Both the position numbers and the translations under genes were made by a program. The notes under the pieces were generated by a model that worked only from the letters and a program-made list of their open reading frames with translations, was not told the origin of the DNA and ran no database searches. Of a DNA stretch of 64,000 bases, positions 6,179-48,075 are shown piece after piece. The stretch is from Trypanosoma brucei (lineage: Eukaryota), in NCBI GenBank assembly GCA_000002445.1, contig CP000066.1:1536001-1600000 (forward strand), given 5' to 3'. Position 1 is the first letter of the stretch. Every line of letters starts with the position of its first letter.

Positions 6179-6912
6179 TGTGTCGTTGGTGTGGTGGGGA
6201 AGTGGAGTATGGAAATTATTTTGGAATCACACTTTCTGATGACTAAAATTTGTGGTGCAAACATGTCGTACATGGATCGTAACTGCGTCTCATTTAAACC
6301 CACACGAAATGTAACTTGCGAACAGGTGTGTTAAGGTTCTTTCGCTACCCCATGCGAGTTGTTATCGTTGCAGCTTTATTGTAAATGAAGGAGCCATCAC
6401 CACCTCTTCCACCACTCCGTCTTCTTCTGTACATGTAACTTACAGTGCTTATTTCCCCCTCCTGAATGTGTGTGTGTGTGTGTTTTTGTGCGTTCTTTTG
6501 TTGTTGATGTTGCTGTTACCATTCAGTTGCAATTGTTCATACACATTTCACACGCCCTTTTACTCACATGACTCTTTTCCACATTCATCCCTCTCGCTGC
6601 GGTCGTTTTCATTCCGGTCGCCAGCACAGAAGGCGCACCTTTCAGTTGTTGTTTAGGTTTAGGCTTTTTTTTGTTGTTTTCCCTTTTTCATATTTGTTAC
6701 TCTGCGTATTCCTCCGTGGGAGTATTTTTCATACCTCTGAAGGCCCACCAATAAGGCACCATTGTTACTGACTCCCTACATTAAGGGGTGTTGTAGTGCA
6801 TTTGAAGGGAGAAGGCGGGTGCTGCGTGGAGAAAGCGAGAGGCAAAGGAAAAGGAAACAGAAAAAGCTGTGTTGGTCAGAGGAAGCGGGAGGAAGGTAAA
6901 TATCATCAGGTC

Positions 6913-9648
6913 ATGTCGGACAACAGAAAAGCAGTGGACGTTACCGTTCTGTCAGAGGATCCTAAGAAGAAAGAAAATGAGAAGAAAGCACGTGAGGCTG
7001 AGTCGCTGAAGATGAGTGAAGAGGATGAACGCATAAAAGGCCAAGTTGAACTTCTTGTTACGCGCGTGGGCGACAGCAACACTGAGTTGGCAGCGGTTGC
7101 GGTTGATCAACTGATTGATTTGCTGCGGACGCACACAAGCGGCAGCGTGGCATCGGTTCCAAAACCACTCAAGTATGTCCGCTCCATGTACGGGCAATTG
7201 GAGAGGGTTCAGAAAGAGACTACTAACCCTAAGCTCGCTGTTCGCCTCCACGACGTACTTTCTTTCGTGGCTATGACCATTGAGTTCCCTGATGGCCAGC
7301 GTCCGGCTCTAGAGCACAAATTGCTAGGTACTCAAGATGATCTCGCCCATTGGGGTCACGAGTATCTCCGCTTCCTCGCCGGGTGCATTAGTACAGAGTG
7401 GAAGGAACGTGTTAGCAAAGGAGAAAGTGTCGTCCACTTGGATGGCTTTATTCAACAAATTGTGAGCTATATGGTGAAACACCAGGATGAACCTACAGCC
7501 GTCGACCTCCTTATGGAAGTGGAGAACATCAAAGCAATCATTCCATTTATTGATGGTCACAACCACAGGCGTATTGCATCTTACTTGGCTGCTGCGAGTA
7601 AGTATTTAACTCGTCCAATGGACACTGAGGCTCTCCGTGTGGTGTATGATATTTATGTAAAAATGGAATCGTACACGGAGGCTCTCTTTGTAGCCTTGCA
7701 GTTAGGTGATCGTGCTGCCGTGGAGAACCTCTTCAAAATGTGCGAGAAGTCTTCTGTAAGCTTGCAAATGGCGCTGAGTTGTGCGCGCTATAGGTTTTTC
7801 CTTCCAAACGACAATGAGGAACAAGGAATTCTCTCTAGTGCTAACGGTAATATGAAACTTTCAGAGCTGTATCGTCACGTCGCAACGGAGCTTGATGCTA
7901 TGACTCCGCTGACACCCGAGGATATATTTAAGACAGGTCTTGACGGGAAGCAGTCCAGCAGTGCCTCTGACAGCTCCTTCAAACTTGCATGTTCCTTCGC
8001 TAGTGGTCTCGTAAACTGTGGATATGGTAAGGATATGTATTTGACAGGTGAGGAAGCCACGTGGCCCAGTGAGCAAACTGATAACCGCCTCTTCGCAACA
8101 ACATCCATGTTGGGGCTTATTCATCTATGGGATCACGCGGACGGTCTACTGGAAATTGAAAAATACCTCCACTCAGATACTGTCAATATCAGAGCCGGTG
8201 CTTGCCTGGCCACTGGTATTTCCCTATGCGGGGTGAGCCATCCCTACGACCCTGCTCTTGGACTCCTCAACGATTTTGTGTGTGCCCCGCATAAAGAGGT
8301 CAGGATTGGTGCTATTCTTGGCTTAGGTTACGCTTATGCAGGGTCGATGCGGGAGGAAATAAGGGAATTGTTGGTACCAATCCTTATCGATGGCGAACAA
8401 ACAATGGAGGTTCAGTGTTTGACAGCGCTTGCACTTTCAATGGTTTTCGTCGGCTCCACAGACGAGGGGATGGTCGAGACGATAACGCATATTCTTTTGG
8501 AGATGCCAGAAAAGGACCTAAAGGAATCCGCCACCTGCTACATTATCCTTGCACTGGGCTGCCTGTTTCTTGGACGGCAAGAAGCTGCTGATACTCTTCT
8601 GGACACTTTGCAAACATCTTCACCTATTATAAGACGTTATGCAGAGATCGTAGTGCGTAGCTGCGCCTACGCGGCAACAGGGAACGTGGTTGTCATCCAG
8701 AACTTCTTTCACGCAATCGCCGAGAACGATGAGCCTGAAGATACTGAGGTTCCTGCGGCCGAGGGCGACGGAAATGGTCAACAGCAGAAAAAAAACCGAC
8801 AGCAGCAGTCCACAGAGAATGCAGCGCATTTAAACTATAAGGCCGCTGCAGTACTTGGTATTGCATTGGTTGCCCTTGGAGAGGATATTGGAACAGAGAT
8901 GGCCAAGCGTTCAATCATTCATACACTTCTCGTCGACACGGTGAGCAAAGGTGAGGCAAATATATCGGGCAGGCATGCCATACCCCTGGCGTACGCATTG
9001 CTTTCAGCATCCAACCCCGGTATGCAGGTCGTAGAGACACTCAACCGCCTCTCACACGACAGCGACATGCTCACTGCAATAAATGCTATTGTGGCCATGG
9101 GTGTAGTGGCTGCAGGAAGTAACAACGCCAGGGTTGTGAGCAAACTACGGAACCTCGCTTTATATTACCAGAAAGATCGCTTCGCTTCTTATCTTTTCTC
9201 GGTGAGACTTGCGCAGGGGTTTACAATGATGGGTAGGGGCCATTTAACCCTTTCCCCATTGTTGAATGACCGTTCACTGGTTTCCCCCACGGCACTCATG
9301 GGGTTGCTTGTATTTTTACACAGCGCTCTGAACTTCGAGGAAATCATCCTCGGTAAGTACAGCTATATGGTCTCCAGTATTGCTCCCAGCATTAACCCGC
9401 GCATGGTGCTTGCAGTTGATGATCAGATGGAAGTTGTTAAAGATGGCGTGCAGGTGCGCGTGGGATTGCCTGTTGATACCGTCGCTGTTGCTGGGAAACC
9501 GAAATCCATCACAGGTTTCCAGACTCAAACCACACCAACGCTTATTAGCGTCACAGACAAGGTAGAGGTTGCCTCTCAGAAGTACAGGCCGGTTGCCAGC
9601 GTTGTGGAGGGTACATTTGTTGTGGAAGAGAAACCAAATATGGAGTAG
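6913..9648 (+). CDS. RPN1: 26S proteasome regulatory subunit RPN1 (non-ATPase subunit 2, PSMD2 homolog).
   Basis: The ORF is listed from 6796, but the first ATG at 6913 (MSDNRKAVD...) follows a Gly/Lys-rich leader that is unlikely to be coding. The N-terminus is KEKE-rich. Matches to remembered PSMD2: 'SVPKPLKYVRSMYGQLERVQ' versus 'SVPKPLKFLRPHYGKLKEI'. 'LLGTQDDLAHWGHEYLRFLAG' versus '[21 protein letters not shown]'. 'GKPKSITGFQTQTTPTLIS' versus 'GKPKTITGFQTHTTPVLLA'. PC repeats are present ('GAILGLGYAYAGS', 'AVLGIALVALGEDIG'). Confidence 0.7.
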   Translation: MSDNRKAVDVTVLSEDPKKKENEKKAREAESLKMSEEDERIKGQVELLVTRVGDSNTELAAVAVDQLIDLLRTHTSGSVASVPKPLKYVRSMYGQLERVQKETTNPKLAVRLHDVLSFVAMTIEFPDGQRPALEHKLLGTQDDLAHWGHEYLRFLAGCISTEWKERVSKGESVVHLDGFIQQIVSYMVKHQDEPTAVDLLMEVENIKAIIPFIDGHNHRRIASYLAAASKYLTRPMDTEALRVVYDIYVKMESYTEALFVALQLGDRAAVENLFKMCEKSSVSLQMALSCARYRFFLPNDNEEQGILSSANGNMKLSELYRHVATELDAMTPLTPEDIFKTGLDGKQSSSASDSSFKLACSFASGLVNCGYGKDMYLTGEEATWPSEQTDNRLFATTSMLGLIHLWDHADGLLEIEKYLHSDTVNIRAGACLATGISLCGVSHPYDPALGLLNDFVCAPHKEVRIGAILGLGYAYAGSMREEIRELLVPILIDGEQTMEVQCLTALALSMVFVGSTDEGMVETITHILLEMPEKDLKESATCYIILALGCLFLGRQEAADTLLDTLQTSSPIIRRYAEIVVRSCAYAATGNVVVIQNFFHAIAENDEPEDTEVPAAEGDGNGQQQKKNRQQQSTENAAHLNYKAAAVLGIALVALGEDIGTEMAKRSIIHTLLVDTVSKGEANISGRHAIPLAYALLSASNPGMQVVETLNRLSHDSDMLTAINAIVAMGVVAAGSNNARVVSKLRNLALYYQKDRFASYLFSVRLAQGFTMMGRGHLTLSPLLNDRSLVSPTALMGLLVFLHSALNFEEIILGKYSYMVSSIAPSINPRMVLAVDDQMEVVKDGVQVRVGLPVDTVAVAGKPKSITGFQTQTTPTLISVTDKVEVASQKYRPVASVVEGTFVVEEKPNME

Positions 9649-9814: not shown

Positions 9815-9818
<4 letters not shown>

Positions 9819-9845
<27 letters not shown>

Positions 9846-9846: not shown

Positions 9847-11571
9847 AAAAGCTATTACCTGACGTAAAGGAGAAAGCGATGTGTGGAAAAGGGATGAAGA
9901 AGGGAATGCTGATAAGAAGAAAAGGGTAAGATACCGGAGGGAGGAAAGATAAAGGAAAGAAGTTCAGGCATCCATACAAGTTAGTTGAGGCCACACGCTA
10001 TTGGAGGTCTATGTTGAGGGCTTGTGCCAACCACTTTTCCTTCCCATGTTCATTCATTCACGTGATAAATTCTTCTGCTGTGTTTGTTTCTCTTTGCCTT
10101 CGAACGAGTGTGTTTGTCTCTTTCTGCGTCTGGCGGTTTAGAATAAGTCCCTCCTGCGAACTGTGCTGCGTTTCCATGATTATTTGTTTTATTTCCTCAA
10201 GTGAGGGTGCTATTACGGGAAATTGATGAGACTCACCGCAACAGATTTTCACTTTTCCCCTTTTTTTCTCTTTCGGAAATGTCGGCATACATGAAATTTT
10301 CTTTGTTGGTTTCGCACCGGAACTGTAAAGGAGGGACTTTGTAAAACGTGTTTACCACACAATCATTACATGGGACAAATCGATTCTAGCGACTCTATTT
10401 AATGTATTTGCGCGAGTCTCTGACGCACAGGGATGCATTCCGTGACTAATATGCCACTGAATCTCTTCACATCCATCTCCGTTTCAGTGCCACCCTTCCT
10501 TTTGCAGCTTGTGTGTCGGCTGAGGCAACAAACTGAAGCTGTTGGACATAATGCCAATTAACTGATTGGACAATTTTTGTTTGTCAGACGTTGACGGGGG
10601 ACACAAAATGGTACACATACACACACACACACACATACACACGCAGAAGATTTGCTACTGTGCTCTTACGATCATTCCATTAGTTTCAAACTAAAGGAAA
10701 AAAACCAGTCTTTGTGGGAACGGCGGAATTCGCTGGTAACATTGTCGTTGGCACCCACTTGGCGAAATAGCCGGTCGATATCAGCTTTACCGAAATCTCA
10801 GGGAACTATCAGTACGCCTTCACTTTCCTATGGCACCAAAACTCACAAAATTGCTGATGTTCAAACACTGAAGAATGAAAGATGACCTGTACTTCTTTGG
10901 GGTGGGCACTTCTGCTGAAGGAGTAGTCGGTATGCTGTCGACACTTTTTTTTTTTTAAGCACCAAAGGGGGAAAGAGTAAGTGCTGCATGCCTGGTAGTT
11001 TACAATTATATCTTGAGCAAAGGAATTACCTTTTCGATCACAAACTTTAAAAAGTTCCGGCGGTGCTGCATCTGAGAGTAATTTTTTTTTTTATCACTAG
11101 AAAAGCAGCCAGTAGCGCTTAGAAAGTTCAGAAGAGAGCGCACAAGATATCACTTCACATTTTACCATTCCACGCACTAAACTGGGTATTTTTGTAACTT
11201 TTTTTTGTATTTACAGCGTGTTTAAGGCCATGAGGGCGCAATATGTAACAAGCCTTTTGAGCACTATGCTTTAAGTGTGTGCATGACGAGCTAATTTAAC
11301 ATATGACTGCTTTCGTTCTTTCCCTTGTACCCATAGGAGGAGGATTCCGACTTAATAAGTTTTCTGTAGTTACCAGATAATCATAAAAACGTGTCAACAC
11401 AAAATACTACCAAAGAGGGAGGGGGAAAAACAATAAAATACAAGGGGAAAATTTTGTCGATAATTGTGAAAGAAAAGATAAAACGGAAGCAGTGCGGGTA
11501 GTTAAGTCATATCTGGTAGTTTAATCTGTTCGGCTCACAGAGTAAACAAATCACCGAGTTGCTCAAAAAAT

Positions 11572-14500
11572 ATGGAAGAGGACAAAAAACATTGGAGTTA
11601 CGACGCGGAAAACGAGGGTGTGTTACGCGACACCCCCTCTCCACTTCAGATACAAGAATCCATTGGGAACGATGGGAATACACAAACAGAAGGTAATGAG
11701 CACGGTGATTCTACAACAGAAGAAAATATCAGCAACAGCGAAGTAAAATGTGAAATTGAAATTGTGGAAAAGGTTCATCCGGATGCCGAAGAGGAAGAGG
11801 CACGTCTCAGAGCTGAAGAGGAGGCACGTCTGAGAGCTGAAGAGGAGGCACGTCTGAGAGCTGAAGAGGAGGCACGTCTCAGAGCTGAAGAGGAATCACG
11901 TCTCAGAGCTGAAGAGGAGGCACGTCTCAGAGCTGAAGAGGAGGCACGTCTCAGAGCTGAAGAGGAGGCACGTCTGAGAGCTGAAGAGGAGGCACGTCTC
12001 AGAGCTGAAGAGGAATCACGTCTCAGAGCTGAAGAGGAGGCACGTCTCAGAGCTGAAGAGGAGGCACGTCTCAGAGCTGAAGAGGAGGCACGTCTCAGAG
12101 CTGAAGAGGAGGCACGTCTGAGAGCTGAAGAGGAGGCACGTCTCAGAGCTGAAGAGGAGGCACGTCTCAGAGCTGAAGAGGAGGCACGTCTCAGAGCTGA
12201 AGAGGAATCACGTCTCAGAGCTGAAGAGGAGGCACGTCTCAGAGCTGAAGAGGAGGCACGTCTCAGAGCTGAAGAGGAATCACGTCTCAGAGCTGAAGAG
12301 GAGGCACGTCTGAGAGCTGAAGAGGAGGCACGTCTCAGAGCTGAAGAGGAGGCACGTCTCAGAGCTGAAGAGGAGGCACGTCTGAGAGCTGAAGAGGAGG
12401 CACGTCTCAGAGCTGAAGAGGAGGCACGTCTCAGAGCTGAAGAGGAGGCACGTCTCAGAGCTGAAGAGGAGGCACGTCTCAGAGCTGAAGAGGAATCACG
12501 TCTCAGAGCTGAAGAGGAGGCACGTCTCAGAGCTGAAGAGGAGGCACGTCTCAGAGCTGAAGAGGAGGCACGTCTCAGAGCTGAAGAGGAATCACGTCTC
12601 AGAGCTGAAGAGGAGGCACGTCTCAGAGCTGAAGAGGAGGCACGTCTCAGAGCTGAAGAGGAATCACGTCTCAGAGCTGAAGAGGAGGCACGTCTCAGAG
12701 CTGAAGAGGAGGCACGTCTCAGAGCTGAAGAGGAGGCACGTCTCAGAGCTGAAGAGGAGGCACGTCTCAGAGCTGAAGAGGAGGCACGTCTCAGAGCTGA
12801 AGAGGAGGCACGTCTCAGAGCTGAAGAGGAGGCACGTCTCAGAGCTGAAGAGGAGGCACGTCTCAGAGCTGAGGAAGAGGCACGTCTGAGAGCTGAAGAG
12901 GAGGCACGTCTGAGAGCTGAAGAGGAGGCACGTCTCAGAGCTGAAGAGGAAGAGGCACGTCTCAGAGCTGAAGAGGAGGCACATCTTGAAAGTAAAGACT
13001 CTTCCGTTAAACGACCCATCCAATGTGACGATGGTTGTAGGTGGATTAGGGCTGATGAGGTTGCAGCAGTTTCAGCAATTGAGGGGCCCACAGGTTCAGC
13101 TTTAGATGATTGTCTTTCGTATTCGTTTGTTGGTATAAGTTCCTCTGAAGTTTCTGTGGGAGGGGAAAACTGCGATGCATTTATGGGTAAAGGTGATACA
13201 TCATCGGCAAGTGATAACGCGCGTAGTGATCACTTGACCGGCCGTTCTTGTTCCAAAACAGTGCCCTTGAAACATCCGTTAACAAATAACATTCCATGCC
13301 ATGATGAGTTTGAAATTTGCATGGAGGAAGAGCTGCTGCGTATGGGTTACGCTGAATCGGATATCCACGTCCGCTACCTGGAACTTCACCACCACGAGAC
13401 GTCACGGGAGCCTGGGCGTTGTCTGTATCCTCCTCTTGAGAGTGGAGGTGGTGTCTTGTCCCCACAAAACATTCAAATTGGTTTCTTCAGAAGCAAGCAG
13501 GTCGTCATTGCTTCCCACTCCTTGGTATCCAGGAGAGTGGCTAAGCGCGAGAGGAGCGCTAAAGTTGGTGAGAGGGCTTTAAGCGACTCGCGGTTCTTCT
13601 TCGAGAATGAACTAATGTCCGACACTACGGTTACAACGGAAGACAGAAATTTACCTCACAATAGCCCTGATGAGCAACTTGTTGAGGAACAGAAACTAAG
13701 GACTAACCAAAATAACCTCGTGGCAGCTGCGCTCTCCCGTTTTACCCTTGGTGACCCTGTTCAAGTGTGGGAGCAGGCATGCGGGTTCTCCCTTGATCCT
13801 GTCCCCGGTATTAGGGATGGTGTGAGACAACTTCCTACACATGTGACTGGGGAGACGTCTTCGTATATATGGGCACACGAAATCGCAACTAACAAGCCAG
13901 TTCCCGCAATGAAAGCCTTTGACTCCGGCGTTCTGCTTCGTGTTGAATGTACGTCTATCGCGAGTCGACTCCTCGAGGTACACAAGGATGCAATAGATCC
14001 TGTCATTGTATCGGTGGCATTCTACAGTATGGGCTCCAGTACCAAGTTAAAGGTGTCTGAGACATTTTTTTTTGATTCGTGTGTCGACATTTTCTACCCT
14101 CACAAGGAGCGCAGTGAACTCAACAGAGAAAGTCGAGCGATGGCTTTTATTCCACAAGAGTTCTTCGCCTCCCTTTACCTCGTTATGCGTGTGTACCGAC
14201 CCTGCTGTGAGGATCAGGACAGTTATGTAGACCTCTACAGCAGACCCGACCGCTACAAAAGCCAGCAGGTTACTCTTATGAAGCAGAACACACAGCTGCT
14301 TGCCATGAAATCTGATATTTTTGAGGAAATTGGCTGGTACATGATGCCTTGTGTAAAGAATAAGAGTGTGGTTGAAACGTTGGAGACGACCAAATTGTAC
14401 CAAAGAGGGGCACCCGATGCACAGGTATTTCAATTGGTAGAAAATGAGCGTGCGCAGAAAGCATTAGCCACACTCCCTTTCTTCGCTTCTTTCAGCTTGA

Positions 14501-17500
14501 AGCATTGTAAGGGATGCGAAGTTGAGTTTCCGTCCCAGCATGATGAACCACTTCCTGAGGAAAATGAGACGATTATCAAGGTGTGCACCCGAAGCGATAC
14601 CGAAGTACAGGAGGAAACTTGCCGATTTGTTCCTTGCATCATACCCATACTAAACTCAGGGTTTTTCAACTCTTATCATAATGTGTACTACTTTCGTCTT
14701 GACAGGGTGAAACTGGTAAGCACTGGGATATTACGAACTGTTCCCTCGACGCACCGCACATTTGTCATGGAGATCAATGTAAGAGACAACGACACATCAT
14801 TGTCTGGTGAAAACCTACCGCTTTTGTACGGGAACAGGCTATCAGCAAAGACACTGCAGACGTCCGTGTGGGCCTCAGCTGTTCACAATTCTCTTGACTT
14901 TTCGTTGAGCGATGAGTTTAAGGTGCAACTGCCACTCCATCTTGGCGAAAAGTTCCATATATTTATAACCCTCTATGCCTGCTGTAAGAAAATGGACAAT
15001 TCTTCAGAAGAAATGCAGAAAATGCACAAGGTTGGTTATGCAGCATTTCCTATTATCCATAACGGTGTGGTGCGGGTGAAGGACGAGTGGACCATCAAGT
15101 TCATCGCAGCGGATCAAGTACTTGAAGGGTCGGAAAAATCATATCTAGATAAATTCTCCGAGGCAGCTGACGAGGCGCACCTTAATGGTGGTATCCCTGT
15201 CTTGTCTGTCAGTACGCAGACACGTACCTCTGTTCATGCCTCTAATGCCATCATTGCCAGTTTACTGAAGGAGATGCCGGCTTCGTTGGAGAGTATTTTG
15301 CGTAATGATAACTTGTTCCGCGTTTCCGGGAATTTGAAAGATATCTATAGGTCCGATGATGACGCAATTCACAGCAGTTTGATCCGTAAAATGCGGAAAC
15401 TTCCTCTGGCGGAGATTCTAGCTTTTTATCCACTTCTTTCGTTCTTCATACTGTCGCTGATCAGTTCACCGTCGAAAAGTGTCAGTTTACCCTGTCGAAC
15501 CGCAGCTTTGGAGGTACTTCTTGACATTACAATCAAAACGCAGCATTATGATCTTACAACCCGTTCGCGTCAAAAACAGCACTCAGCACGGGGTGTTTCC
15601 AAAACCTCCGTAACCCGCTTTCTCTATCACCATCTTACTAATGATTTACTGTATAATGGAGAGAAGCAACGCCTCTACGCCGGATTTGCAGAGACATGGT
15701 TACATCTACTGGTGGCGTGTAGACCGCATTCAGAGAACACTGACCAAGGTGCTGGGGATAAAACTGCGAAGGACGACCGTGAACAAGACAAGAGGAACAT
15801 TCGCAAGCGGATGGCAGATCTGTCGTGGTTTTTATTCGGTGTGATATTGCGTTCTATTTACATCTGGGCACTGGAGAACCCCAGCATTCCTCGAGCGAAG
15901 TTGTTGGACCCCGGTTTCTACTCGATTATTGGTGACCTCTGCGTAGAAGCTCTTGACGTTCTTGACGGTTTTGGAATCGATGATGTCCTTGTTCGGCGCA
16001 CGGCACTCTTTACGAGGAATCTGTTTAATTTCTGTGATCGCGGAAAGGTGCTTAACATCACCCAACGAATCGTGGAGTTCTTCGAAAAACGGCAAGATAT
16101 GGAGGGATTGGGCACGTTTATGAGTATCATTCTTGACGACGTGGATGTCGTTACGTTGATGATTCCTTCTTCGTCATACACCCAACCCGTCTTTCTTACT
16201 CGTATATTAGTACATGCCTTCTCGCTTTTACTCTCCAGTCCAAGCCAGGTCGTGCGTTCCTCATCTTCGGACGTGCTCTACAAATTCATTTGTCGTGTGA
16301 CAAATGGTGTGCGTTACCCCGCAACCTGTTTGCGCTGGATGGCCTCGCAACTCCTTGCTTTGGTACGAGAGGTTTCACTTCGGTGGAAAGCGTATGTGCA
16401 AATGTGTGAGAAGACAGAGTCTGTTGCTACAATTGAGGACAAGCGTCAACTCTGTGTTTCGATACTTTGGATAATTTATTATGCACCACCAGGTCGTCTA
16501 CGAAATTGGTTGAAGGGAGAGCGCGACAGTGACGTAATTTCTGGTCTTTTGAGCCTTGTAAGTGATGCGCAACACCTCTTTCGCTACACCGCGGGCGTTG
16601 ACAAGGCAAATCCACATGGTGTTAAGGAACCAACCCAATGGATGCGGGAGTGGGATGCGCGCATGTCAACGTTTGTTGCTGCAATTGGTGCATATGTGTG
16701 CAGCGCAGTCCTCCATGCTGTTCCTGATGCACTAAAGAGTCTCCGAACTGAGAAAGTGGATCCAATTGTGTTCCCGTTCTTTCATTTGTTAGAAGGTGTA
16801 TTGCATCTTGGAAATTCAACAGCCGCCCTTCAGATTGGTTCCTGTGCCCTACTGGAAGTTGCTCATTCTATCTTTCCGGAGATTTTGTGTTCCACTTCGC
16901 GGATGTGCAGCGGTATGGCAGTACTTGTGATGAGTCTGATGAGTAGTTGTTCGGTGCATGTGCGTTCAATGGCGGAGGAGGTGCTGTTCCTGATGTGCTA
17001 CGCCTGTTACACGGGGTGCAGGTCAGTCGCAAAAATCAAGGCGCCGATCTTCAGCGCAACGGTTTACGTGGCGGAGTCTAAAAAGCGTGACCTTCGTTTA
17101 GCTGGAGGTTTTCTCGAACTCCATCTCTCGAACTTAGTGCGAAAAGCTCAACAGTCGGGAGACAACTTCCCCCCGTTTTCCCAGTCGTATGTAAAGCGCT
17201 GTGAAGCTGACTCAGAAACCCCCGGTAATGAGGTTACCGCAGGGCGCCGGCATTGTGGAGAGTCACCATTTACTTCTGTCGAGCGGATGAGCCCGATACC
17301 ATCTTGCCTTATCAGCAACGGTGTGAATGGAATCGCATCACTTGTAGGAAACCGTAGGACAAGTGCTATTGTTGGAAGCGAACAGGGCAGCAACAACTGT
17401 AATGAACCACCCTCATTCGCAGAGGAGCTGGCTTCAGTGAGGGAAATATCCATGATGTTGTTCGGTAGCGTTCGGCAACTGATGCAGACCGAATCTCTTC

Positions 17501-18963
17501 GGCTGAAGGAGGCGAAGGCGCTCCAACACTTCAAACTTGCCGTGCAACTGTTGAGGGTGGGTGCAGTGCATGAATGCCTCAGATGGTTTCAGCGCCTTCA
17601 TGAACTGCACAAAGCGAACAACAACATGGGGGAGGCGGGCATTGTTTTGTTGTTTGTAGCGGCTCTTTGTTTTCGTCTAACAGAAGCCTTCTACCAAGTA
17701 AGAGGAAAGGAATCACGAGGAGCACGCATACCATTTATTGTGTTCTCCCACGTGTTCTGGCACGATTACGCGCGGCTTCTTCCTGAAGTGGACACACTTC
17801 TTACTGGTGATGTTTTGTATACGGTGGTGTCGGAGTTGAGGGTTCTCCCTAGCGACCCCTGCTTGTCACTTTCAGGACATGTAGAAGTGTTGCGAGGGGC
17901 TGCGTCGCTGTTAGATAAGGATCATTATAACATCTTCTCTGTAGGTGTGTTAAGCATTGTTGAGCGTTACTACCGTTTGTTGAATGACTTCAAAGCTGCC
18001 GCCTCAATCCACTCAGCGATGGCGGACGGTTGTTATGCGGTTTCTAAAGAAGATCGACAAAAGCGGGAGAATCACTGTTACTTTTTGCTTTGGGCTCGCA
18101 TGAACCGGGCAGAAGTTGAGTTACATGAGATGGATGGTAACGAATCCATGCAAAACGGATACAGCCTGCCTCTAAAATGCGTGTTTAAAATGCCAGCTAA
18201 AACTAAGTTGGAGCAGTTTTTGGAATGTAGCAAAGACTTCGTTAGGCCCCTTCTCAAAGACGCCACTCCTCTTGTTGTTACGGAAATGGCGGAGGAACAA
18301 AAAGATATGGGAGCTTTAGAAGCTTCGAAATTACCACCGGAAAATTGCTGTTTATTAAGCGTGTGTGAAGTCAACCCATGCTTTTCCAGTGGTAGGCGGA
18401 AGCTCACCGACAGTTACGATAGAAATGCTTCCCTCAATAAATTTGAGTACATGACGTACACATACGACAACAGTCGGGAGTATGGCGACGCCAAGCCGGA
18501 TAGTGCTTTACTAAGGAACCGTTTGGTTGTGTACAAATACCACCTTGAGCGCTCATTCCCTTCAACAACGAATGTCATAGACGTTGCCACTACACATATT
18601 GACCAGCTTGATACCGCGGCCACCGTTGCACACGTCCTGGGCAAAAGCATTGAAATGTTGCAGGCGCCGGTGGATAACGACGAACTTGTCGGCACACTGC
18701 TACGAGCGCTTACGCCCGGTGGGTTCGCGCGGCCAGGCGCTTATATAAAAGAAGTCATCACTACAATGAGTACGAATAGTGCTGTAATGACTCAGGTGCG
18801 ATCCCTCAGCAAACTACTGAAGACGAAGTTGACACTTTGCGAAAAGCATGACGCTCCACTAAATAGCACAGAGAATTACGCACTTGTTTTAAAGGCTGTG
18901 ATGGATATAGAGTGTACGCTTATTACTTTGGATGACAAGGTAGGGGTAGCCTGCAGTCAATAG
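11572..18963 (+). CDS. Giant 2463-aa protein. The N-terminus carries an acidic/Arg-rich tandem-repeat domain of about 50 x EEEARLRA. The C-terminal two thirds have DOCK-family (DHR-1/DHR-2-like) features of a guanine-nucleotide exchange factor.
   Basis: The ATG at 11572 is genuine, and this is the longest ORF in the window. The repeat is read directly from the sequence. A DHR-2-like segment, 'GAVHECLRWFQRLHELHKANNNMGEAGIVLLFVAALCFRL', matches the remembered DOCK motif '[37 protein letters not shown]' in the pattern W..L.....n..EAa....aal. A DHR-1-like segment is 'GEKFHIFITLYACCKK' versus the DOCK motif 'HLLFTFYHVSC'. The domain call is from memory only. Confidence 0.6.
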   Translation: MEEDKKHWSYDAENEGVLRDTPSPLQIQESIGNDGNTQTEGNEHGDSTTEENISNSEVKCEIEIVEKVHPDAEEEEARLRAEEEARLRAEEEARLRAEEEARLRAEEESRLRAEEEARLRAEEEARLRAEEEARLRAEEEARLRAEEESRLRAEEEARLRAEEEARLRAEEEARLRAEEEARLRAEEEARLRAEEEARLRAEEEARLRAEEESRLRAEEEARLRAEEEARLRAEEESRLRAEEEARLRAEEEARLRAEEEARLRAEEEARLRAEEEARLRAEEEARLRAEEEARLRAEEEARLRAEEESRLRAEEEARLRAEEEARLRAEEEARLRAEEESRLRAEEEARLRAEEEARLRAEEESRLRAEEEARLRAEEEARLRAEEEARLRAEEEARLRAEEEARLRAEEEARLRAEEEARLRAEEEARLRAEEEARLRAEEEARLRAEEEARLRAEEEEARLRAEEEAHLESKDSSVKRPIQCDDGCRWIRADEVAAVSAIEGPTGSALDDCLSYSFVGISSSEVSVGGENCDAFMGKGDTSSASDNARSDHLTGRSCSKTVPLKHPLTNNIPCHDEFEICMEEELLRMGYAESDIHVRYLELHHHETSREPGRCLYPPLESGGGVLSPQNIQIGFFRSKQVVIASHSLVSRRVAKRERSAKVGERALSDSRFFFENELMSDTTVTTEDRNLPHNSPDEQLVEEQKLRTNQNNLVAAALSRFTLGDPVQVWEQACGFSLDPVPGIRDGVRQLPTHVTGETSSYIWAHEIATNKPVPAMKAFDSGVLLRVECTSIASRLLEVHKDAIDPVIVSVAFYSMGSSTKLKVSETFFFDSCVDIFYPHKERSELNRESRAMAFIPQEFFASLYLVMRVYRPCCEDQDSYVDLYSRPDRYKSQQVTLMKQNTQLLAMKSDIFEEIGWYMMPCVKNKSVVETLETTKLYQRGAPDAQVFQLVENERAQKALATLPFFASFSLKHCKGCEVEFPSQHDEPLPEENETIIKVCTRSDTEVQEETCRFVPCIIPILNSGFFNSYHNVYYFRLDRVKLVSTGILRTVPSTHRTFVMEINVRDNDTSLSGENLPLLYGNRLSAKTLQTSVWASAVHNSLDFSLSDEFKVQLPLHLGEKFHIFITLYACCKKMDNSSEEMQKMHKVGYAAFPIIHNGVVRVKDEWTIKFIAADQVLEGSEKSYLDKFSEAADEAHLNGGIPVLSVSTQTRTSVHASNAIIASLLKEMPASLESILRNDNLFRVSGNLKDIYRSDDDAIHSSLIRKMRKLPLAEILAFYPLLSFFILSLISSPSKSVSLPCRTAALEVLLDITIKTQHYDLTTRSRQKQHSARGVSKTSVTRFLYHHLTNDLLYNGEKQRLYAGFAETWLHLLVACRPHSENTDQGAGDKTAKDDREQDKRNIRKRMADLSWFLFGVILRSIYIWALENPSIPRAKLLDPGFYSIIGDLCVEALDVLDGFGIDDVLVRRTALFTRNLFNFCDRGKVLNITQRIVEFFEKRQDMEGLGTFMSIILDDVDVVTLMIPSSSYTQPVFLTRILVHAFSLLLSSPSQVVRSSSSDVLYKFICRVTNGVRYPATCLRWMASQLLALVREVSLRWKAYVQMCEKTESVATIEDKRQLCVSILWIIYYAPPGRLRNWLKGERDSDVISGLLSLVSDAQHLFRYTAGVDKANPHGVKEPTQWMREWDARMSTFVAAIGAYVCSAVLHAVPDALKSLRTEKVDPIVFPFFHLLEGVLHLGNSTAALQIGSCALLEVAHSIFPEILCSTSRMCSGMAVLVMSLMSSCSVHVRSMAEEVLFLMCYACYTGCRSVAKIKAPIFSATVYVAESKKRDLRLAGGFLELHLSNLVRKAQQSGDNFPPFSQSYVKRCEADSETPGNEVTAGRRHCGESPFTSVERMSPIPSCLISNGVNGIASLVGNRRTSAIVGSEQGSNNCNEPPSFAEELASVREISMMLFGSVRQLMQTESLRLKEAKALQHFKLAVQLLRVGAVHECLRWFQRLHELHKANNNMGEAGIVLLFVAALCFRLTEAFYQVRGKESRGARIPFIVFSHVFWHDYARLLPEVDTLLTGDVLYTVVSELRVLPSDPCLSLSGHVEVLRGAASLLDKDHYNIFSVGVLSIVERYYRLLNDFKAAASIHSAMADGCYAVSKEDRQKRENHCYFLLWARMNRAEVELHEMDGNESMQNGYSLPLKCVFKMPAKTKLEQFLECSKDFVRPLLKDATPLVVTEMAEEQKDMGALEASKLPPENCCLLSVCEVNPCFSSGRRKLTDSYDRNASLNKFEYMTYTYDNSREYGDAKPDSALLRNRLVVYKYHLERSFPSTTNVIDVATTHIDQLDTAATVAHVLGKSIEMLQAPVDNDELVGTLLRALTPGGFARPGAYIKEVITTMSTNSAVMTQVRSLSKLLKTKLTLCEKHDAPLNSTENYALVLKAVMDIECTLITLDDKVGVACSQ
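11788..12984 (+). repeat. Perfect 24-bp tandem repeat (GAAGAGGAGGCACGTCTCAGAGCT), about 50 copies, in-frame and encoding (EEEARLRA)n.
   Basis: Read directly from the sequence. The only variants are a synonymous ctc/ctg (Leu) change and gca/tca (Ala/Ser) in about 10 copies. The last copy degenerates to EEEAHLES. A 438-aa antisense ORF (11775-13091, 'SSSALRRA'n) is an artefact of the repeat. Confidence 0.97.
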
Positions 18964-20100
18964 CGATAAACCAATGTGGTGCGTGAGATATTAAAAGGTA
19001 TTTTAAGGTTAATATATTTTGGGGGTTGGATGGCGTCACCATTATTAATATTTTAATCATAGAAAATACTCTCGCGTCATATTGATGTAGTGGTTGGTGA
19101 TTTTTTTTGCTTTTGTTATTTTCGTGTGCTTTAAGATCCAGCGTTGCGGTAGTGTTCACCCTCCCCCCGATGGGGTCAAATATTTGGCCTTCAAAACAAA
19201 TGTTGAATTAACCTTTTGATGATGATATCATTTTCATTTTTTTCTCCATAACAATGAATGTTTCGTGTCTGATAAATTGATGGTGAGTGCGATGGGCGTG
19301 TTATCGCTACCATTCCTTTTGCTTTAATCACCGCCTCTCCTGTTGGATTTTCTCAATGTGTGAACGTGCTTCCATCACTCAGCACTGCTGCAGACACAGA
19401 CGAATACAATACTACAAATGAATACAGATATATATGTTGTTTCCCTCTTTTTGTTCCTTTTTTGTTTCAATTTTACCGTCGCTCAGCGGCTGTTTCTTCG
19501 ATCGTCCCTTGAATGTGATTCTCTTCATAACGCTGGGTTGATTGAGTGCTCTGCACTTGTATCTAATCGTGCTTAGTGGTGGAACAGTTTTAAATTATCA
19601 TCATGACTTGAAGGAGCTGGGAAGTCGGAATTGATTCCGGTATTTTTTAAAAAAAAATAGAAAGAGAAATTATATACAAGTGCCCCTCTCTTTTTTGTGT
19701 TTGTTTCTGTGCGTTTATTTGCATTATTAACAGGGAGAAGTAACCATAGGTAACGTGCTAAGCGGTTTAGGAGAGCTGTGAAGGGGCGTGTTTAATTCTC
19801 TTTTTTACGTGTGATCCCTTTTGTCGCTATCACTATTTCGTCAGTTCTATTATTATTGTTATTATCACTTGCTACTGTGTCATGTCTCCGTTGTTCTTCG
19901 TAATGTAGTAAAGGTTGAGCATTTGATAGAGTTTTTTTTTCTTATTTTATTGGTTAAGGGTGCTTGTATCACCAAAGGGGGAGCACGCGGAAGTGCGGTA
20001 GGGCGAATAGACGCGAAAAGAATTGCAAAAAAAAAAAGTAGTGAATACTCTGAACACTACATTACAGGGGCTATTAAGGCAATTTTTTTCTAGTGAAGAG

Positions 20101-21705
20101 ATGCCCATTCCGTGTAATTTCAAGGATCAAATAACAGGTGAAGTTCATATTCCCTCAACTTCCCGCGCAAATGTTACGTACAAACAATGTGAATGTCAGA
20201 CGGGTGTGCTTAAGATGCAAGATATGGAAACACAAACAGCGATTAGCGCTCTTCAGGCAGTCAACCGAAGCGACAAACAAGTTGGCCACGAGAAACCTCA
20301 GATCCAGGCAAATATCGATGGGCTGCAATATGTTTATGCTGGAGTAAATTACAGCGAGGAGGCTCTGGCTGATTTCCTGGAGGCGGCGAGGGAAGACGTC
20401 CTTGCTATATTATACCGCAATGTAAAAAACAGTGCGTTTGACAACTACGAGCCGAATTGGACGAAAAAGAGCACTGAACTCTCTGCTGTTGCAACTTTCC
20501 GGGCGTCGTATGCCGAGGAAAGAGATCTTCACGCCTTATCCGTGAGTTTTAACTCCAGCGGAACACTCTTAGCCGTTGCATACGGCCAAGTGGATACCGC
20601 AGGGTGGTGTAATGATACAGGCATGGTTGGTATATGGAACTTGTCACGAAATGATGTAAACGTTAATGAACCGCATCACATGATGGAAACTGATTCCTTC
20701 GTCACATGTGTTGCATTTCATCCATCACAGGCAACAGTGTTGGCAGTGGGACTGTACAGTGGTGAGGTGGTACTTTATAAAAATGTGACGGATGCGACAC
20801 CGATAGAGATGACAGCAGACGGATCTTCAACATCGCACAGAGAGCCCGTGACATTCCTGCAGTGGACTGAAAACTTACAGGAGACGCGTGATTCCCATCG
20901 GTACACGCTTTGTTCCGCGGGCCAGGATGGTCGTATCCTCTTTTGGACTATGGGCAATAAAATGGCGCAACCAACAGCCGCATTTATCATTAAAACCAGG
21001 AAAGGAGCAACGGTTGGTGTGCAGTCCGCTTGTTTCTCCCGTCCCGGGGGCTCCGCCGGTCGCATCACACCATCGAGCGACAGTGTTCTCGTCATTGGTC
21101 TTGAAAATGGTGATGTTGGCCGAGCCCGTCCTGGCGTCCTTGCTGCCCTTCCAACTCGAGCTGGAGAGTCGGAGGTTTCTCTTGAACTTGATTGGTTGTC
21201 CTCTCACAGGGGTCCTGTGCAGTGCGTTGATACCTCGCCTTTCTTTCACAATCTCTGCCTCACTTGTTCTTCTGATGGCAGTGCTCGGCTGTACAACATG
21301 CTAGAAACGGCAGCAGTTGCCACATTAGAGCCGTCTGCGGAGTCGAAACATTTCCTTTATGCTGCGCGGTTTAGTCCTTTTAGACCCAGTGTTATTGCTG
21401 TGGTTTCGCGCAGCTCATTCCTGCATATATATGACTTGCAGAAATCGCAACTTAAGCCTGTAGTAACGTTGGAAGCTGGGACAGATGGCGCTGCACTGAT
21501 GTGTGTTACTTTTAATCATGCTTCACCGGATTGGATTTGTACGGGGGACGTCAGTGGCTCCGTCCGCCTCTGGAAGCTGCCGTCGTCCCTCATGCAAACC
21601 ACCGACTTGGAGCGGGCTGCTGTGCGGGATAGCCGTGGCCGTGGGGGGAATGCGGAAGACAGTGAAAAGAACGCCGTCATATCTCTGTTTGGTTTCTCTC
21701 TCTGA
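20101..21705 (+). CDS. WD40-repeat protein resembling dynein intermediate chains (candidate axonemal or IFT dynein intermediate chain).
   Basis: The listed ORF start at 20023 is TTG, directly after an oligo(A) run, and the first ATG is at 20101 (MPIPCNFKD...). WD-repeat signatures recur through the C-terminal 350 aa: 'VTCVAFHPSQATVLAVGLYSGEVVLYK', 'LCSAGQDGRILFWT', 'LTCSSDGSARLYNM', 'ICTGDVSGSVRLWKL'. The N-terminal region, 'LADFLEAAREDVLAILYRN...NYEPNW', fits the dynein intermediate-chain layout. Confidence 0.5.
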   Translation: MPIPCNFKDQITGEVHIPSTSRANVTYKQCECQTGVLKMQDMETQTAISALQAVNRSDKQVGHEKPQIQANIDGLQYVYAGVNYSEEALADFLEAAREDVLAILYRNVKNSAFDNYEPNWTKKSTELSAVATFRASYAEERDLHALSVSFNSSGTLLAVAYGQVDTAGWCNDTGMVGIWNLSRNDVNVNEPHHMMETDSFVTCVAFHPSQATVLAVGLYSGEVVLYKNVTDATPIEMTADGSSTSHREPVTFLQWTENLQETRDSHRYTLCSAGQDGRILFWTMGNKMAQPTAAFIIKTRKGATVGVQSACFSRPGGSAGRITPSSDSVLVIGLENGDVGRARPGVLAALPTRAGESEVSLELDWLSSHRGPVQCVDTSPFFHNLCLTCSSDGSARLYNMLETAAVATLEPSAESKHFLYAARFSPFRPSVIAVVSRSSFLHIYDLQKSQLKPVVTLEAGTDGAALMCVTFNHASPDWICTGDVSGSVRLWKLPSSLMQTTDLERAAVRDSRGRGGNAEDSEKNAVISLFGFSL

Positions 21706-42864: not shown

Positions 42865-43385
42865 CGGTATTTAGTTAAGCTTTTTTTTTGTTTTATTTTA
42901 TTTTATTTTATTTTTTTTTGGGGGGGGGGTATCCACGAAATATGTGGAATTGGAGAGGTGCGGGAAAACGGTTGGAAAGCAGAAAAGGGGGAATGCACCG
43001 CAAAAAAAAAAAAAAAGAAAACAAAAGAGAAAGAAGAGAAAGAGAAAATAAGGAAGGAGAAAAGGTGTATGAGTGTGTGTATATTTATATTCGTTCGTTC
43101 GTTCGAGTTATGTTGATGATTTTTGTACCGAACTATTTCATGTGAAAAAAAATTAAATAAATAAATATATATATATTTATTTATTTATATTAATCCTGAG
43201 TCTTACAGCATCTTAGAGTTCACTGAACATGAAACTTGAAACAATTGGTTGTCTCCATTAGTCTTTTTCTTATTTTGTCTCTCATATTTTTCCTCTTTCT
43301 TCTTTTCCTTTTGATATTTATTCTAAACTTATCGCGATGTGTAAAAAAAAAAAAAGAAAGAAAGAAAGGAAGGAAGAAAATAAAA

Positions 43386-43619
43386 ATGCTAGTTAGCGCC
43401 AGCGAAACGTTTAAAGATATGATTCACAATACCTCGTCTGCACTCATTACCGTCGCTGTGGGTTGTGTCATTATTGTGCTTTTATGGTTCACAGTGTGGA
43501 GTACAACACTTAAAGATGTTCCTTTCATTCATGAATTTTTTAACGCATTTACTCGACGCACGGGGTCAAAAAAAAAACCGCAAGTACGCACGAAAAAATG
43601 TACCGTCATCTTCAGGTGA
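43386..43619 (+). CDS. Possible small (77 aa) single-TM protein; speculative.
   Basis: The ATG at 43386 is preceded by an A-rich stretch. A non-repetitive hydrophobic helix 'ALITVAVGCVIIVLLWFTVW' is present. The upstream in-frame part of the ORF (43236-43385) is only a translation of a T-rich low-complexity tract and is probably non-coding. Confidence 0.2.
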   Translation: MLVSASETFKDMIHNTSSALITVAVGCVIIVLLWFTVWSTTLKDVPFIHEFFNAFTRRTGSKKKPQVRTKKCTVIFR

Positions 43620-44493
43620 TTTGCAATTTTTTTTCAAAAAAAGAAAAAAGAACAAAAACAAAAAATAAATTAAAGAAAAATGAAGAAAAATGAAGGTGTC
43701 GTGACGTACAGCTCCCCCTCAGATGAGGAAGTGGAATGGGGTTTGGAGAAAGTGTGGCTAAACTTATTTCACCACTTCCTTTTTTTTTTAATATTTTGGT
43801 GTTTTTTTTTTTGTGTGTGTGTGCGTGTGTGCGTGTTTCTTATTTATTTTTATTTTTTTCTTTTTTTCTTTTTTTTTTGGGGGGGGGTGGGAGGGGGGCT
43901 ACTTACTTATATCATGAAAGAACTTTTTTAAAAAAAACAAAAATAGAAAAAAAGAGAAAAGAAAAGAAAAGAAAAAAAGAGGGCCCCTTCTTCTTCTTAT
44001 TATTATTATTTTGCTTATTAGACACATATGCTTTTTTCATGATGTCCTGAGAAAGTTTTTAAAGCATTTGGAAGGAAGGGAAGGGAAAAAAAAACCCCTC
44101 CCCCCTCCCATCACACACACACACACACACACGAAATATGTTTTACGTTTTTGTGATAATGTTCATGCAATGCAGCGATTTGAAATATTTTAAGAGTTGT
44201 TGTTTTTGTTTTGTTATTTTCATTTTTGTTTGACGTTTGCGTTTATTGAATTCCTTTCTTTGTTTTTTTTTATTTCGTTGTTGTTTTTTCGTTGTTATTG
44301 TTATTATTGTTATTATTGTTCACACTGTTTGCTCGTAATACCTTTCTCTCGTCTGTCACTGTTATATTTTGCACAGTTGCCATTGTTGTTACCCTTATGT
44401 CCTCATATCTTTGCTACGTTATTTGTGGCAATTCCTCATGTCACATGTAATATATTTAAATCTTTTTTGTTCTTGTTTTTTTTTGTTTTATTC

Positions 44494-44527
<34 letters not shown>

Positions 44528-44528
44528 G
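44494..44528. repeat. (GTT)11 microsatellite within a spacer of about 1.8 kb of low-complexity sequence, followed by (AT)n at about 44571-44592.
   Basis: The sequence is 'gttgttgttgttgttgttgttgttgttgttgttg'. The surrounding 42865-44700 region is mostly T-rich, G-run, (CA)n and (GT)n tracts. Confidence 0.9.
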
Positions 44529-44706
44529 CGGTGGTATCTTTATTTCTTCCTCTTCTTTTTTGTTTAAAAAATATATATATATATATATATTTTTTTCCTT
44601 TTCTGTTCTATAGTTAAGTTTCATTGATAATCTAAACAAACTTATAGATTCCCCCCTCTCCCTCATTCATAATACACTAACGATTTGTTTTTGTAATACC
44701 CATCCA

Positions 44707-47403: not shown

Positions 47404-48075
47404 ATGGCTAAGGTTGATACGCTGCTTGTATCAATTTTATTGCTCTTTTTGTGGCTATCAGTGGGTGTTTATGCAAACCAGCAGGACGGTTCAGCGGTTC
47501 CTATACCAAGCTGTGGTGAACGAGAGGAAGTTGACAATATTTTAAAATCTCTTGATAGAATTAAGCGCCTCAATTATGCGAAGGCAAACTGTACACTCGA
47601 GCGGTACGCCCCAAAAAATTTACATAAAGGGGGTAACTGTACGTTATGTGTCGACGGATTTTGGTGCGTAGACAAGCATATTTGCGTGGTTGATACTCTA
47701 CTGGTTTTTTTGGGTGTGCGTCCACCGCAGGCAGTTGAAGAAAAGAAAGAAAAGTTGGATCCGGATGACAGTTCCGCACCGAATGGAAACGATGAAAATC
47801 CCCTTCCCGCAAGTGATGCCCCCGCAGCCCCCAGCGGGCCCAAACAAAAGCAGCCGGATGATGCGATTAAAACACCAGGGGGAAATGTTAAGGACTCGTC
47901 ACCGGATGTTGTGCAGCATCAGATTTCAACAAAAGGAACTTCTAACACTAAAATTAACAGAAAAAATGAAGTTGCGGACACGGAACAACCTACGGACCAG
48001 CAAAGAAGCATATCTCGACGCCCTTTCACACTCATTCGTTCAATGGATGCAATACTTTTTTTTGTTGTTGTCTAG
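47404..48075 (+). CDS. Small (223 aa) secreted or surface protein. It has a signal peptide, a 6-Cys N-terminal module, a Pro/Ala/Asp-rich low-complexity region and a short hydrophobic C-terminus.
   Basis: The first ATG in the ORF is at 47404 (MAKVDTLLVSILLLFLWLSVGVYANQQ...), and its N-terminus is a typical signal peptide. The Cys pattern is 'CGERE...CTLERY...CTLCVDGFWCVDKHIC'. The C-terminus 'SMDAILFFVVV' is hydrophobic but short for a GPI signal. Confidence 0.45.
   Translation: MAKVDTLLVSILLLFLWLSVGVYANQQDGSAVPIPSCGEREEVDNILKSLDRIKRLNYAKANCTLERYAPKNLHKGGNCTLCVDGFWCVDKHICVVDTLLVFLGVRPPQAVEEKKEKLDPDDSSAPNGNDENPLPASDAPAAPSGPKQKQPDDAIKTPGGNVKDSSPDVVQHQISTKGTSNTKINRKNEVADTEQPTDQQRSISRRPFTLIRSMDAILFFVVV

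Follow-up and report, generated by a model that had tools for sequence, protein, structure and literature searches.

The strongest tandem repeat in a 64,000-nt stretch of Trypanosoma brucei DNA (GCA_000002445.1, contig CP000066.1, positions 1,536,001 to 1,600,000 of the forward strand; hereafter the window) is the EARLRAEE octad repeat of Tb-292 (Tb927.3.5530), a euglenozoan DOCK-family protein. Judged from structure prediction, the array most likely forms one long, highly charged alpha-helix. The overall reading favoured here, with a confidence somewhat above even, is that the Tb-292 EARLRAEE minisatellite encodes a long charged helix that serves as a semi-flexible tether of a DOCK protein. 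The repeat, its copy number, the antigenicity of the Leishmania counterpart and the DOCK identity of the host protein are already known, each having been published separately (1994; 2007; 2007-2017; 2017), and as a discovery this ordinary feature carries little weight. What is added is the joining of three literatures (Tb-292/EARLRAEE, the Lci12 antigen and euglenozoan DOCK proteins), an ancient array under concerted evolution across the Trypanosomatidae with a natural loss in T. vivax, and corrections to the published annotation of two transmembrane segments ('2 TM') and to truncated gene models (L. donovani, Phytomonas and probably others).

Anatomy of the array and identity of the gene

Tandem Repeats Finder (TRF) reports a period of 24 at 11797-12986, with 49.5 copies, 95% matches and a score of 2178, by far the highest in the window. 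Cut in codon register, the array comprises 49 complete tandem units (47 of 24 bp and two of 27 bp) at 11788..12969 on the + strand, as delimited by TRF, the unit catalogue and AlphaFold2 (AF2), and encodes (EEEARLRA)n over residues 73-466 (394 aa). A preliminary description, made from the letters of the window alone, had put it at about 50 near-perfect repeats and some 400 residues, which is borne out. The array is in frame within a 2463-aa open reading frame (ORF) at 11572..18963 (+), which is 100% identical over its 2463 aa to the "Tb-292 membrane associated protein" of T. b. brucei TREU927 (XP_844143.1/Q580S2) and is, on the ORF and this database identity, the coding sequence (CDS) of Tb-292. 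The EARLRAEE repeat of Tb-292 was published in 1994 (Lee, Russell, D'Alesandro & Van der Ploeg, J Biol Chem 269:8408). A 2007 survey of perfect repeats tabulates Tb927.3.5530 with 2 TM and 49 x RLRAEEE (PMC2254594, Table 4), that is, the same array at the same copy number.

The major unit type, GAAGAGGAGGCACGTCTCAGAGCT (EEEARLRA), accounts for 32 units, and seven others carry a synonymous CTC>CTG change. Seven units encode EEESRLRA; each has two nucleotide changes (GAG GCA > GAA TCA), so that a synonymous change is linked to the substitution. A single unit, GAGGAAGAG...CTG, has permuted Glu codons. The two 27-bp units encode EEEEARLRA, are identical to each other and constitute the first (11788..11814, +) and the last complete unit (12943..12969, +) of the catalogue. 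The preliminary description had listed only the ctc/ctg change and about ten Ser units, and falls short on both the number and the kinds of variant. In the T. b. gambiense DAL972 and the 1994 sequences, the EEEEARLRA variant is found in the first unit only. Directly after the array, the translation and the unit catalogue place a degenerate terminal half-unit, EEEAHLES (12970..12993, +).

The sense frame and a single antisense frame are the only frames free of stops across the array. The latter appears in the ORF list as a 438-aa antisense ORF (11775..13091, -) that reads (ALRRASSS)n and is a mechanical by-product of the repeat, as its earlier designation as spurious implied. Apart from it, the large ORFs of the window are all encoded on the + strand, the arrangement of a kinetoplastid polycistron.

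Several database matches to the array were rejected as compositional. Residues 377-479 match the bacterial Pfam family DUF2345 (PF10106) with 54.4 bits and E=1.6e-14, above the cut-off of 30.7, and PF08017 (Fibrinogen_BP) is attached to other orthologues; both are compositional false positives, and the PDB matches of the array region (IF-2, ensconsin, TolA, huntingtin, circumsporozoite protein) are of the same nature. Precomputed annotation assigns DUF2345 to the proteins of both T. brucei and L. braziliensis. Fifteen units of the bare repeat peptide were also used as a database query, aimed at the paralogue Tb-291 and other carriers; under low-complexity correction, a single irrelevant match of 107 aa was returned.

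Predicted structure of the array

A single-sequence AF2 model gives helices at residues 73-283 and 286-475, matching the array, with pLDDT 85-93 over most of its length and with both flanks disordered. The helicity anticipated in the preliminary description is thereby upheld at the level of prediction, and we regard it as very likely. The composition of the T. brucei array is Glu 37.5%, Arg 25% (62.5% charged), Ala 25% and Leu 12.5%, with 0% Lys and no Gly or Pro. In 16 sequences taken together, the 5549 array residues comprise Glu 33%, Ala 25.5%, Arg 24.6%, Gln 8%, Leu 5% and Lys 0.6%, with no Gly and only two Pro.

In (EEEARLRA)n each Arg has Glu at both i-4 and i+4, with 0.25 E>R(i+4), 0.23 R>E(i+4) and 0.24 i+3 pairs per residue, and like-charge pairs at i+3 or i+4 are absent. 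Coiled-coil and single alpha-helix (SAH) character was judged by helical-wheel and hydrophobic-moment calculations. These calculations revealed a period of exactly 8 and no heptad or hendecad periodicity of a hydrophobic core. The moment at 96-103 degrees per residue, angles that cover both the straight helix and the coiled coil, is 0.01-0.05, vs 1.01 for a model heptad coiled coil, because the Leu rotates by 80 degrees per unit. The octads of orthologues preserve this pattern. Of their i/i+4 pairs, Ala at position 1 faces Ala or Ser at position 5, Glu at position 2 mostly faces Arg at position 6, and pair 4:8 is subject to a charge swap. T. brucei and L. braziliensis have the latter as E:R, whereas T. 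congolense, T. grayi, T. cruzi and L. martiniquensis have R:E. Over all octads, 57 salt pairs stand against 3 clashes.

The contour length of a 49-unit helix is 59 nm. Persistence lengths of 15 nm (Kelch ER/K helix) and 22.4 nm (myosin VI SAH) have been published, and with these values the worm-like-chain root-mean-square (rms) end-to-end distance comes to 36-41 nm for 49 units, 27-30 nm for 32 and 41-48 nm for 60. A helix of this kind would be semi-flexible, not rigid. The rod of about 60 nm previously proposed consequently keeps its length along the contour and loses its rigidity.

Domains and termini of the host protein

The DOCK-type C2 (DHR-1) domain at residues 1033-1226 (14668..15249, +) is matched by Pfam PF14429 (E=2.7e-21, 76.8 bits vs a cut-off of 33.6), and a profile of 16 orthologues matches the DHR-1 structures of DOCK6 (E=3e-9) and DOCK8 (E=5e-6). 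A DHR-2-like region at residues ~1949-2461 (17416..18954, +), with a helical lobe A, a beta lobe B and a helical lobe C, is indicated by Pfam, profile, AF2 and Foldseek results. The T. brucei match of PF06920 to lobe A (residues 2002-2155) scores 24.3 bits, just below the curated cut-off of 26 bits; the same family is on record for most orthologues, and the 16-orthologue profile matches the DHR-2 structures of DOCK7/8/10. An AlphaFold model of residues 1801-2463 (pLDDT 63.8) has a helical, beta, helical layout that fits the three lobes. In a Foldseek search of this model against the PDB, the top eight matches were all DOCK DHR-2 (E 3e-7 to 4e-4), with low TM-scores of 0.15-0.31, which indicate that the packing of the lobes is poorly modelled.

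Fort & Blangy 2017 (PMC5499878) describe the DOCK proteins of Euglenozoa as unique, their C2 and DHR2 domains being canonical; several of the species with this DOCK lack Rac, and DHR-2 may do something other than Rac exchange. A catalytic, guanine nucleotide exchange factor (GEF) role of the predicted DHR-2-like domain is uncertain on this account. Of the C-terminal catalytic region that the preliminary description had supposed, the domain is thus present as a DHR-2-like prediction, while its catalysis is in doubt.

The N-terminal 72 aa (11572..11787, +) are acidic, predicted to be disordered (AF2 pLDDT <50, residues 1-71) and not conserved outside T. brucei. Most trypanosomatid orthologues instead have a conserved motif of ~75 aa before the array (MSxxNDIERQxMxEMEAEI...PPFEI...IQxEIEERLRRKQ; e.g. 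orthologues P0003, P0007, P0015, P0017 and P0028), which could be a tethered element. T. brucei and T. congolense are without it and have an unrelated acidic, predicted-disordered N-terminus in its place. When the motif was searched for, neither the DNA upstream of the T. brucei start nor the rest of the window gave a significant match.

The two most hydrophobic segments of the protein are residues 1279-1297 (~15406-15462), in a conserved helical region after the C2 domain, and residues 2022-2040 (17635-17691), within lobe A of the DHR-2-like region. They are the likely source of the published descriptions of '2 TM' or 'trans-membrane segments'. Both are probably buried helices rather than membrane spans, in which case the annotation as a membrane protein with 2 TM is wrong; the membrane association reported in 1994 would then be better explained by the C2 domain.

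Variation and concerted evolution in T. brucei

Three T. brucei sequences differ in copy number, with 49 units in TREU927, 32 in DAL972 and 60 in the 1994 clone, each count being that of a single assembly or clone. The flanks of all three are collinear, at exactly 72 and 1997 aa, free of indels and with <=25 substitutions. The copy-number polymorphism predicted from the TREU927 letters is hence found, as far as single assemblies and clones can represent their strains.

Between TREU927 and DAL972, the flanking CDS differs at 48/5994 nt (0.8%). Mean identity among the units of one array is 0.963 (TREU927) or 0.981 (DAL972), but falls to 0.918 between the two arrays. The dominant TREU927 unit, GCTGAAGAGGAG... 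(GCT GAA GAG GAG GCA...), makes up 32 of 47 units, and the dominant DAL972 unit, GCTGAGGAGGAA... (GCT GAG GAG GAA GCA...), 23 of 31. These major types differ at two synonymous sites, and a single unit type is common to both arrays. Neither the DAL972 nor the 1994 sequence has the Ser variant that seven TREU927 units carry. With two subspecies fixed for different synonymous unit types, the array evolves by concerted evolution, one of the two explanations that the preliminary description had offered for its homogeneity. As a coding minisatellite, it may change its copy number and spread variants by unequal recombination or replication slippage; units would thereby be homogenised within a strain while strains and species diverge.

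Distribution among trypanosomatids and loss in T. vivax

An octad array was found in the same syntenic slot (RPN1, DOCK, WD40, Arf-like GTPase), between the N-terminus and the conserved core of the DOCK protein, in nearly all trypanosomatids sampled. Within Trypanosoma, it is carried by T. congolense (AEERARQE, ~21 units), T. grayi (AEERARKE, ~11), T. cruzi (AEERAQRE, ~70) and T. conorhini, for which the gene model is partial. The Leishmania arrays are those of L. major (AEEQARRE/V, ~91-97 units), L. mexicana (AEEQARRE, ~81), L. braziliensis (AEEQARLR / AEEEARLR, ~82), L. donovani (counted as 24-bp DNA units, ~52), L. martiniquensis (AEERARLE / AEEQARRE, ~40) and L. orientalis (AEEQARRE, ~49). 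Further arrays occur in Porcisia hertigi (AEAQARRE, ~51 units), Novymonas (AEAEARRE, ~27), Leptomonas pyrrhocoris (AEEQARRE, ~14), Lotmaria (AEAQARKE / AEEQARRE, ~12) and Phytomonas EM1 (EQARREAE, ~9).

Two neighbours anchor the slot in the window. The upstream one is proteasome subunit RPN1 (6796..9648, +; Pfam RPN1_RPN2_N, E=1.7e-78), present in all orthologous loci. The downstream one is the WD40 protein Tb927.3.5540 (20023..21705, +; Pfam WD40 and beta-propeller), the intraflagellar transport (IFT) dynein intermediate chain DIC5 (identifier and name from PMC4148251). A downstream WD40 gene of 531-538 aa is called in all eight other loci that reach that far; the T. cruzi locus, which has gaps, ends within this gene. 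In T. grayi, an extra 721-aa gene with a weak VWA match lies between RPN1 and the DOCK gene (locus L005, 478-2643) and is absent from the other syntenic loci.

Among species checked at the DNA level, only T. vivax truly lacks the array. Its upstream intergenic region, 1.5 kb and free of gaps (GCA_021307395.1, locus L007, 2500-4001), is devoid of E/R/A signal in every frame. The DOCK core is complete and synteny is intact, and two assemblies give the same 1994-aa protein. T. vivax is accordingly a natural deletion of the array.

Among more distant relatives, Bodo saltans and several environmental sequences have degenerate, non-tandem segments rich in E/A/R(K) at the same place, often with an "AE[IV][EQ]RR" core; others have none. 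A 2778-aa homologue from EukProt (P0028) shares only 32% identity with T. brucei and yet possesses the conserved N-terminal motif along with ~85-90 octads. Its array shows a higher-order EAEERARQ/EAEEQARI pattern, and its C-terminus ends in a hydrophobic tail not seen in other homologues. Taken together, these sequences indicate an ancient array, neither recent nor lineage-specific. The very recent expansion that the preliminary description had proposed beside concerted evolution, and the lineage specificity that it had left to a comparison with related species, do not survive that comparison. The charged helical N-terminal segment appears to be old in kinetoplastids, with the perfect tandem array as a trypanosomatid elaboration.

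Assembly problems and gene models

The preliminary description had warned that arrays of this length and perfection are prone to assembly collapse, and the orthologues justify the concern. L. major Friedlin has a 3418-aa protein with 146 x AEEQARR in the 2005-era reference (PMC2254594, Table 3) vs 2923 aa and ~93 units in a newer assembly (GCA_916722125.1, locus L003, 6001-14772). In L. donovani (GCA_900635355.2, locus L009, 3753-4957), 51.6 units with 4% indels are split over three frames; the indels break the frame, and the annotated protein (2039 aa) consequently starts after the array. The Phytomonas EM1 model (locus L008, upstream of 4001) starts 256 in-frame codons late and misses ~9 octads, and three draft gene models begin inside the array. 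The protein models of Phytomonas and L. donovani had suggested that the array is absent there, which inspection of the DNA overturned. Those of L. tarentolae and L. seymouri, seen at the protein level only, are without an array and look similarly truncated. Read-depth variation in the copy number of a Tb-292-like gene has been reported among L. infantum isolates.

Function of the array

In the reading that we favour, an SAH-like helix would serve the kinetoplastid DOCK protein (C2/DHR-1 plus DHR-2) as a long, semi-flexible N-terminal spacer or tether. Selection would bear on a composition that forms helix and pairs charges, and not on the exact sequence or length. Species differ between ~9 and ~97 units, T. 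brucei sequences alone span 32 to 60, and T. vivax has none. The presence of the array in monoxenous insect trypanosomatids argues for a cell-biological rather than an immunological role.

A number of points weigh against this reading. The AF2 helix is broken at residues 284-285 and its pLDDT falls to ~69 near the centre, and single-sequence AF2 predicts helix for almost any such sequence and does not distinguish an SAH from an oligomer. Given the composition, the salt-bridge arrangement of a single octad has p ~0.17 by permutation and is supporting evidence only, and some lineages (Novymonas AEAQAQRA) have few salt pairs. The array is without Lys, unlike the Lys/Arg mixture that is typical, though not strictly defining, of experimentally validated SAHs. 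Designed Arg-only repeats (AEEERRR, AEEEKRR) were helical but aggregated, and an Ala-enriched one (AEEAKKA) dimerised. The T. brucei N-terminal end has no recognisable domain to be held away from the DOCK core; the lack of the N-terminal motif, with no upstream remnant, weakens the spacer idea for this species, and the spacing of the N-terminus envisaged in the preliminary description fares poorly with 72 disordered, non-conserved residues at that end. The T. vivax protein without an array and the ~ten-fold variation in length suggest that a spacer would not be length-critical and may be dispensable. Moreover, arrays of this kind are demonstrably mis-assembled, which bears on every copy number quoted.

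The designed peptides also lend themselves to an alternative in which the array self-associates, as a two-stranded or higher-order helical bundle or by lateral association mediated by Arg; the partners might be the two chains of a DOCK dimer. DHR-2 lobe A is the dimerisation interface of DOCK proteins, Ala stands at positions i and i+4 of every octad in all species, and the AF2 break at residues 284-285 leaves two helices. Conversely, the array has no hydrophobic seam at any known coiled-coil periodicity; its net charge of -1 per unit (about -49 overall), unlike that of the neutral designed peptides, should oppose self-association; and the natural Arg-enriched SAH of myosin VI is monomeric. 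Self-association is on balance unlikely, and monomeric SAH behaviour as such stands at about even odds. We consider it equally unlikely that the array is in essence a neutral coding minisatellite which propagates itself, has no spacer function and is tolerated by a permissive linker at the N-terminus. The helix-friendly composition would then reflect harmlessness only, in agreement with the ~ten-fold variation in copy number among species and 32-60 units in T. brucei, the complete loss of the array in T. vivax with the rest of the protein conserved, the N-terminal end of T. brucei without a conserved element, and the degenerate, non-tandem E/A/R-rich segments, or none, of Bodo saltans and other distant homologues. 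Still, neutrality sits uneasily with an array kept at the same position in nearly every trypanosomatid sampled, monoxenous species included. The octad period, the Ala residues of positions 1 and 5 and the Glu of position 2 are conserved, and the frame is always maintained. Gly and Pro are virtually absent from the 5549 residues, pair 4:8 exchanges its charges, and a helical segment rich in E/R/A persists at this place in Bodo and environmental relatives.

In Leishmania, the orthologue (LinJ.29.0110 = Lci12; LmjF29.0110) is already known as a serodiagnostic antigen of the tandem-repeat kind. Lci12 was found in tandem-repeat antigen screens; among visceral leishmaniasis cases, 46% of the human and 91% of the canine ones have sera that recognise the L. 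infantum protein, and lists of repetitive parasite antigens include the repeat. From this it might be argued that the repeat is maintained as an immunodominant B-cell antigen or immune decoy in vertebrate infection. However, the DOCK-type protein is cytoplasmic and without a signal peptide, with the predicted '2 TM' falling in helical-repeat and DHR-2 regions; abundant tandem repeats of any kind are commonly antigenic as a by-product; and the insect-only Leptomonas, Lotmaria and Novymonas and the plant parasite Phytomonas, none of which faces antibodies, carry arrays. The monoxenous species already disfavour the decoy explanation, which we hold to be very improbable. Still slightly less credible is that the array, or its exact 49 units and variant order, is an assembly artefact. 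The suspicion is fed by the two Friedlin counts for one strain, the frameshift-riddled L. donovani array, the draft models that start inside or just after an array, and the suspicious uniformity of the 1994 and DAL972 arrays at the peptide level. Nevertheless, the array stands, with its frame preserved, in over 15 species and in three T. brucei sequences of independent origin, which puts its existence beyond doubt. The array was cloned independently in the 1994 work, and DAL972 has its own nucleotide unit types and so is no copy of TREU927; the uncertainty is limited to the exact count and the variant order.

A bolder version of the tether reading is that the array is a length-tunable, Lys-free E/R/A SAH that tethers a partner-binding N-terminal element to a membrane-bound DOCK core, strain copy number altering its reach and T. 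vivax serving as a natural null. This version we consider doubtful, a shade more so than self-association or neutrality. If true, the T. brucei helix of ~60 nm and the L. major helix of >110 nm would rank among the longest SAHs known to us, and they would provide a natural counter-example to the aggregation of Arg-only repetitive charged helices. If the array is a monomeric SAH, it would offer a natural test case for the design rules of Arg-only SAHs and for the effect of tether length on a DOCK protein. For serodiagnostics, strain variation in copy number and unit type bears on antigen design.

Other features of the window

The ~1.9-kb intergenic region upstream of the Tb-292 gene contains two microsatellites, (GT)15 at 9815-9845 and (CA)n at ~10612-10640. 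Further downstream, the ORF at 50000-51472 (+) holds a full trypanosomal VSG_B domain (E=3.6e-71) and is preceded, at 42000-49500, by a region of low GC (0.36-0.39) with many short repeats rich in poly(A)/poly(T). A tandem gene family of ~330-354 aa without a Pfam match lies at 56952-57944, 58768-59829, 60646-61707 and 62458-63522, its members having a signal-peptide-like N-terminal start and a hydrophobic C-terminal tail. Copies 2 and 3 are 100% identical, copy 4 shows 85% identity and the first copy 42%. The three copies of 353-354 aa are each accompanied by an antisense ORF of ~300 aa.

Comparison with known systems

Tb-292 as described in 1994 is the same gene with the same repeat as in the window, the clone of that time having 60 units and no Ser variants. 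In that earlier work, as far as it could be traced, the protein figures as a membrane protein with 2 TM, and neither the DOCK identity nor the helix reading is drawn. The euglenozoan DOCK proteins of PMC5499878, reported for Trypanosoma, Leishmania and bodonids, share the canonical C2/DHR-1 and DHR-2 with Tb-292; the passages on them mention neither an N-terminal repeat nor the name Tb-292.

Lci12/LmjF29.0110 is the positional orthologue of Tb-292 (RPN1, DOCK, WD40 synteny) and has an 8-aa E/R/A repeat in the same place. In L. braziliensis the peptide AEEEARLR, identical to that of T. brucei, occurs in 30/82 units. Unlike in Tb-292, the dominant unit of the Leishmania protein is AEEQARRE/V, in ~30 to 146 copies depending on species and assembly. 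Lci12 has been studied solely as a serodiagnostic antigen.

Compared with the ER/K SAHs (myosin VI/X, the Kelch ER/K helix, INCENP, CAF-1 KER), the array is strongly enriched in Glu and basic residues, has dense i/i+4 pairs of opposite charge and no hydrophobic seam, is predicted as a continuous helix and lies between other protein segments. It differs in having no Lys, in being 62.5% charged where known SAHs are about 75-80% (E plus K/R; typically ~80%), in its 25% Ala and 12.5% Leu, and in being a perfect octad tandem instead of an irregular sequence. The label 'ER/K-type' given to it in the preliminary description is unsupported or overstated, an array free of Lys and rich in Ala lying outside the range of experimentally validated SAHs; on the other side, predicted SAHs of kinetoplastids are, as a class, rich in Arg and Ala. 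At 394 aa the array is, to our knowledge, several times longer than the SAHs characterised so far.

Designed charged repeats (the AEEEXXX series, E4K4 and Ala-based E/R peptides) resemble the array in a periodic E/R/A pattern, opposite charges at i/i+4 and a helix-favouring background. Whereas the designed Arg-only heptads are neutral and aggregated at neutral pH, each unit of the array has eight residues, one of them Leu, and carries a net charge of -1.

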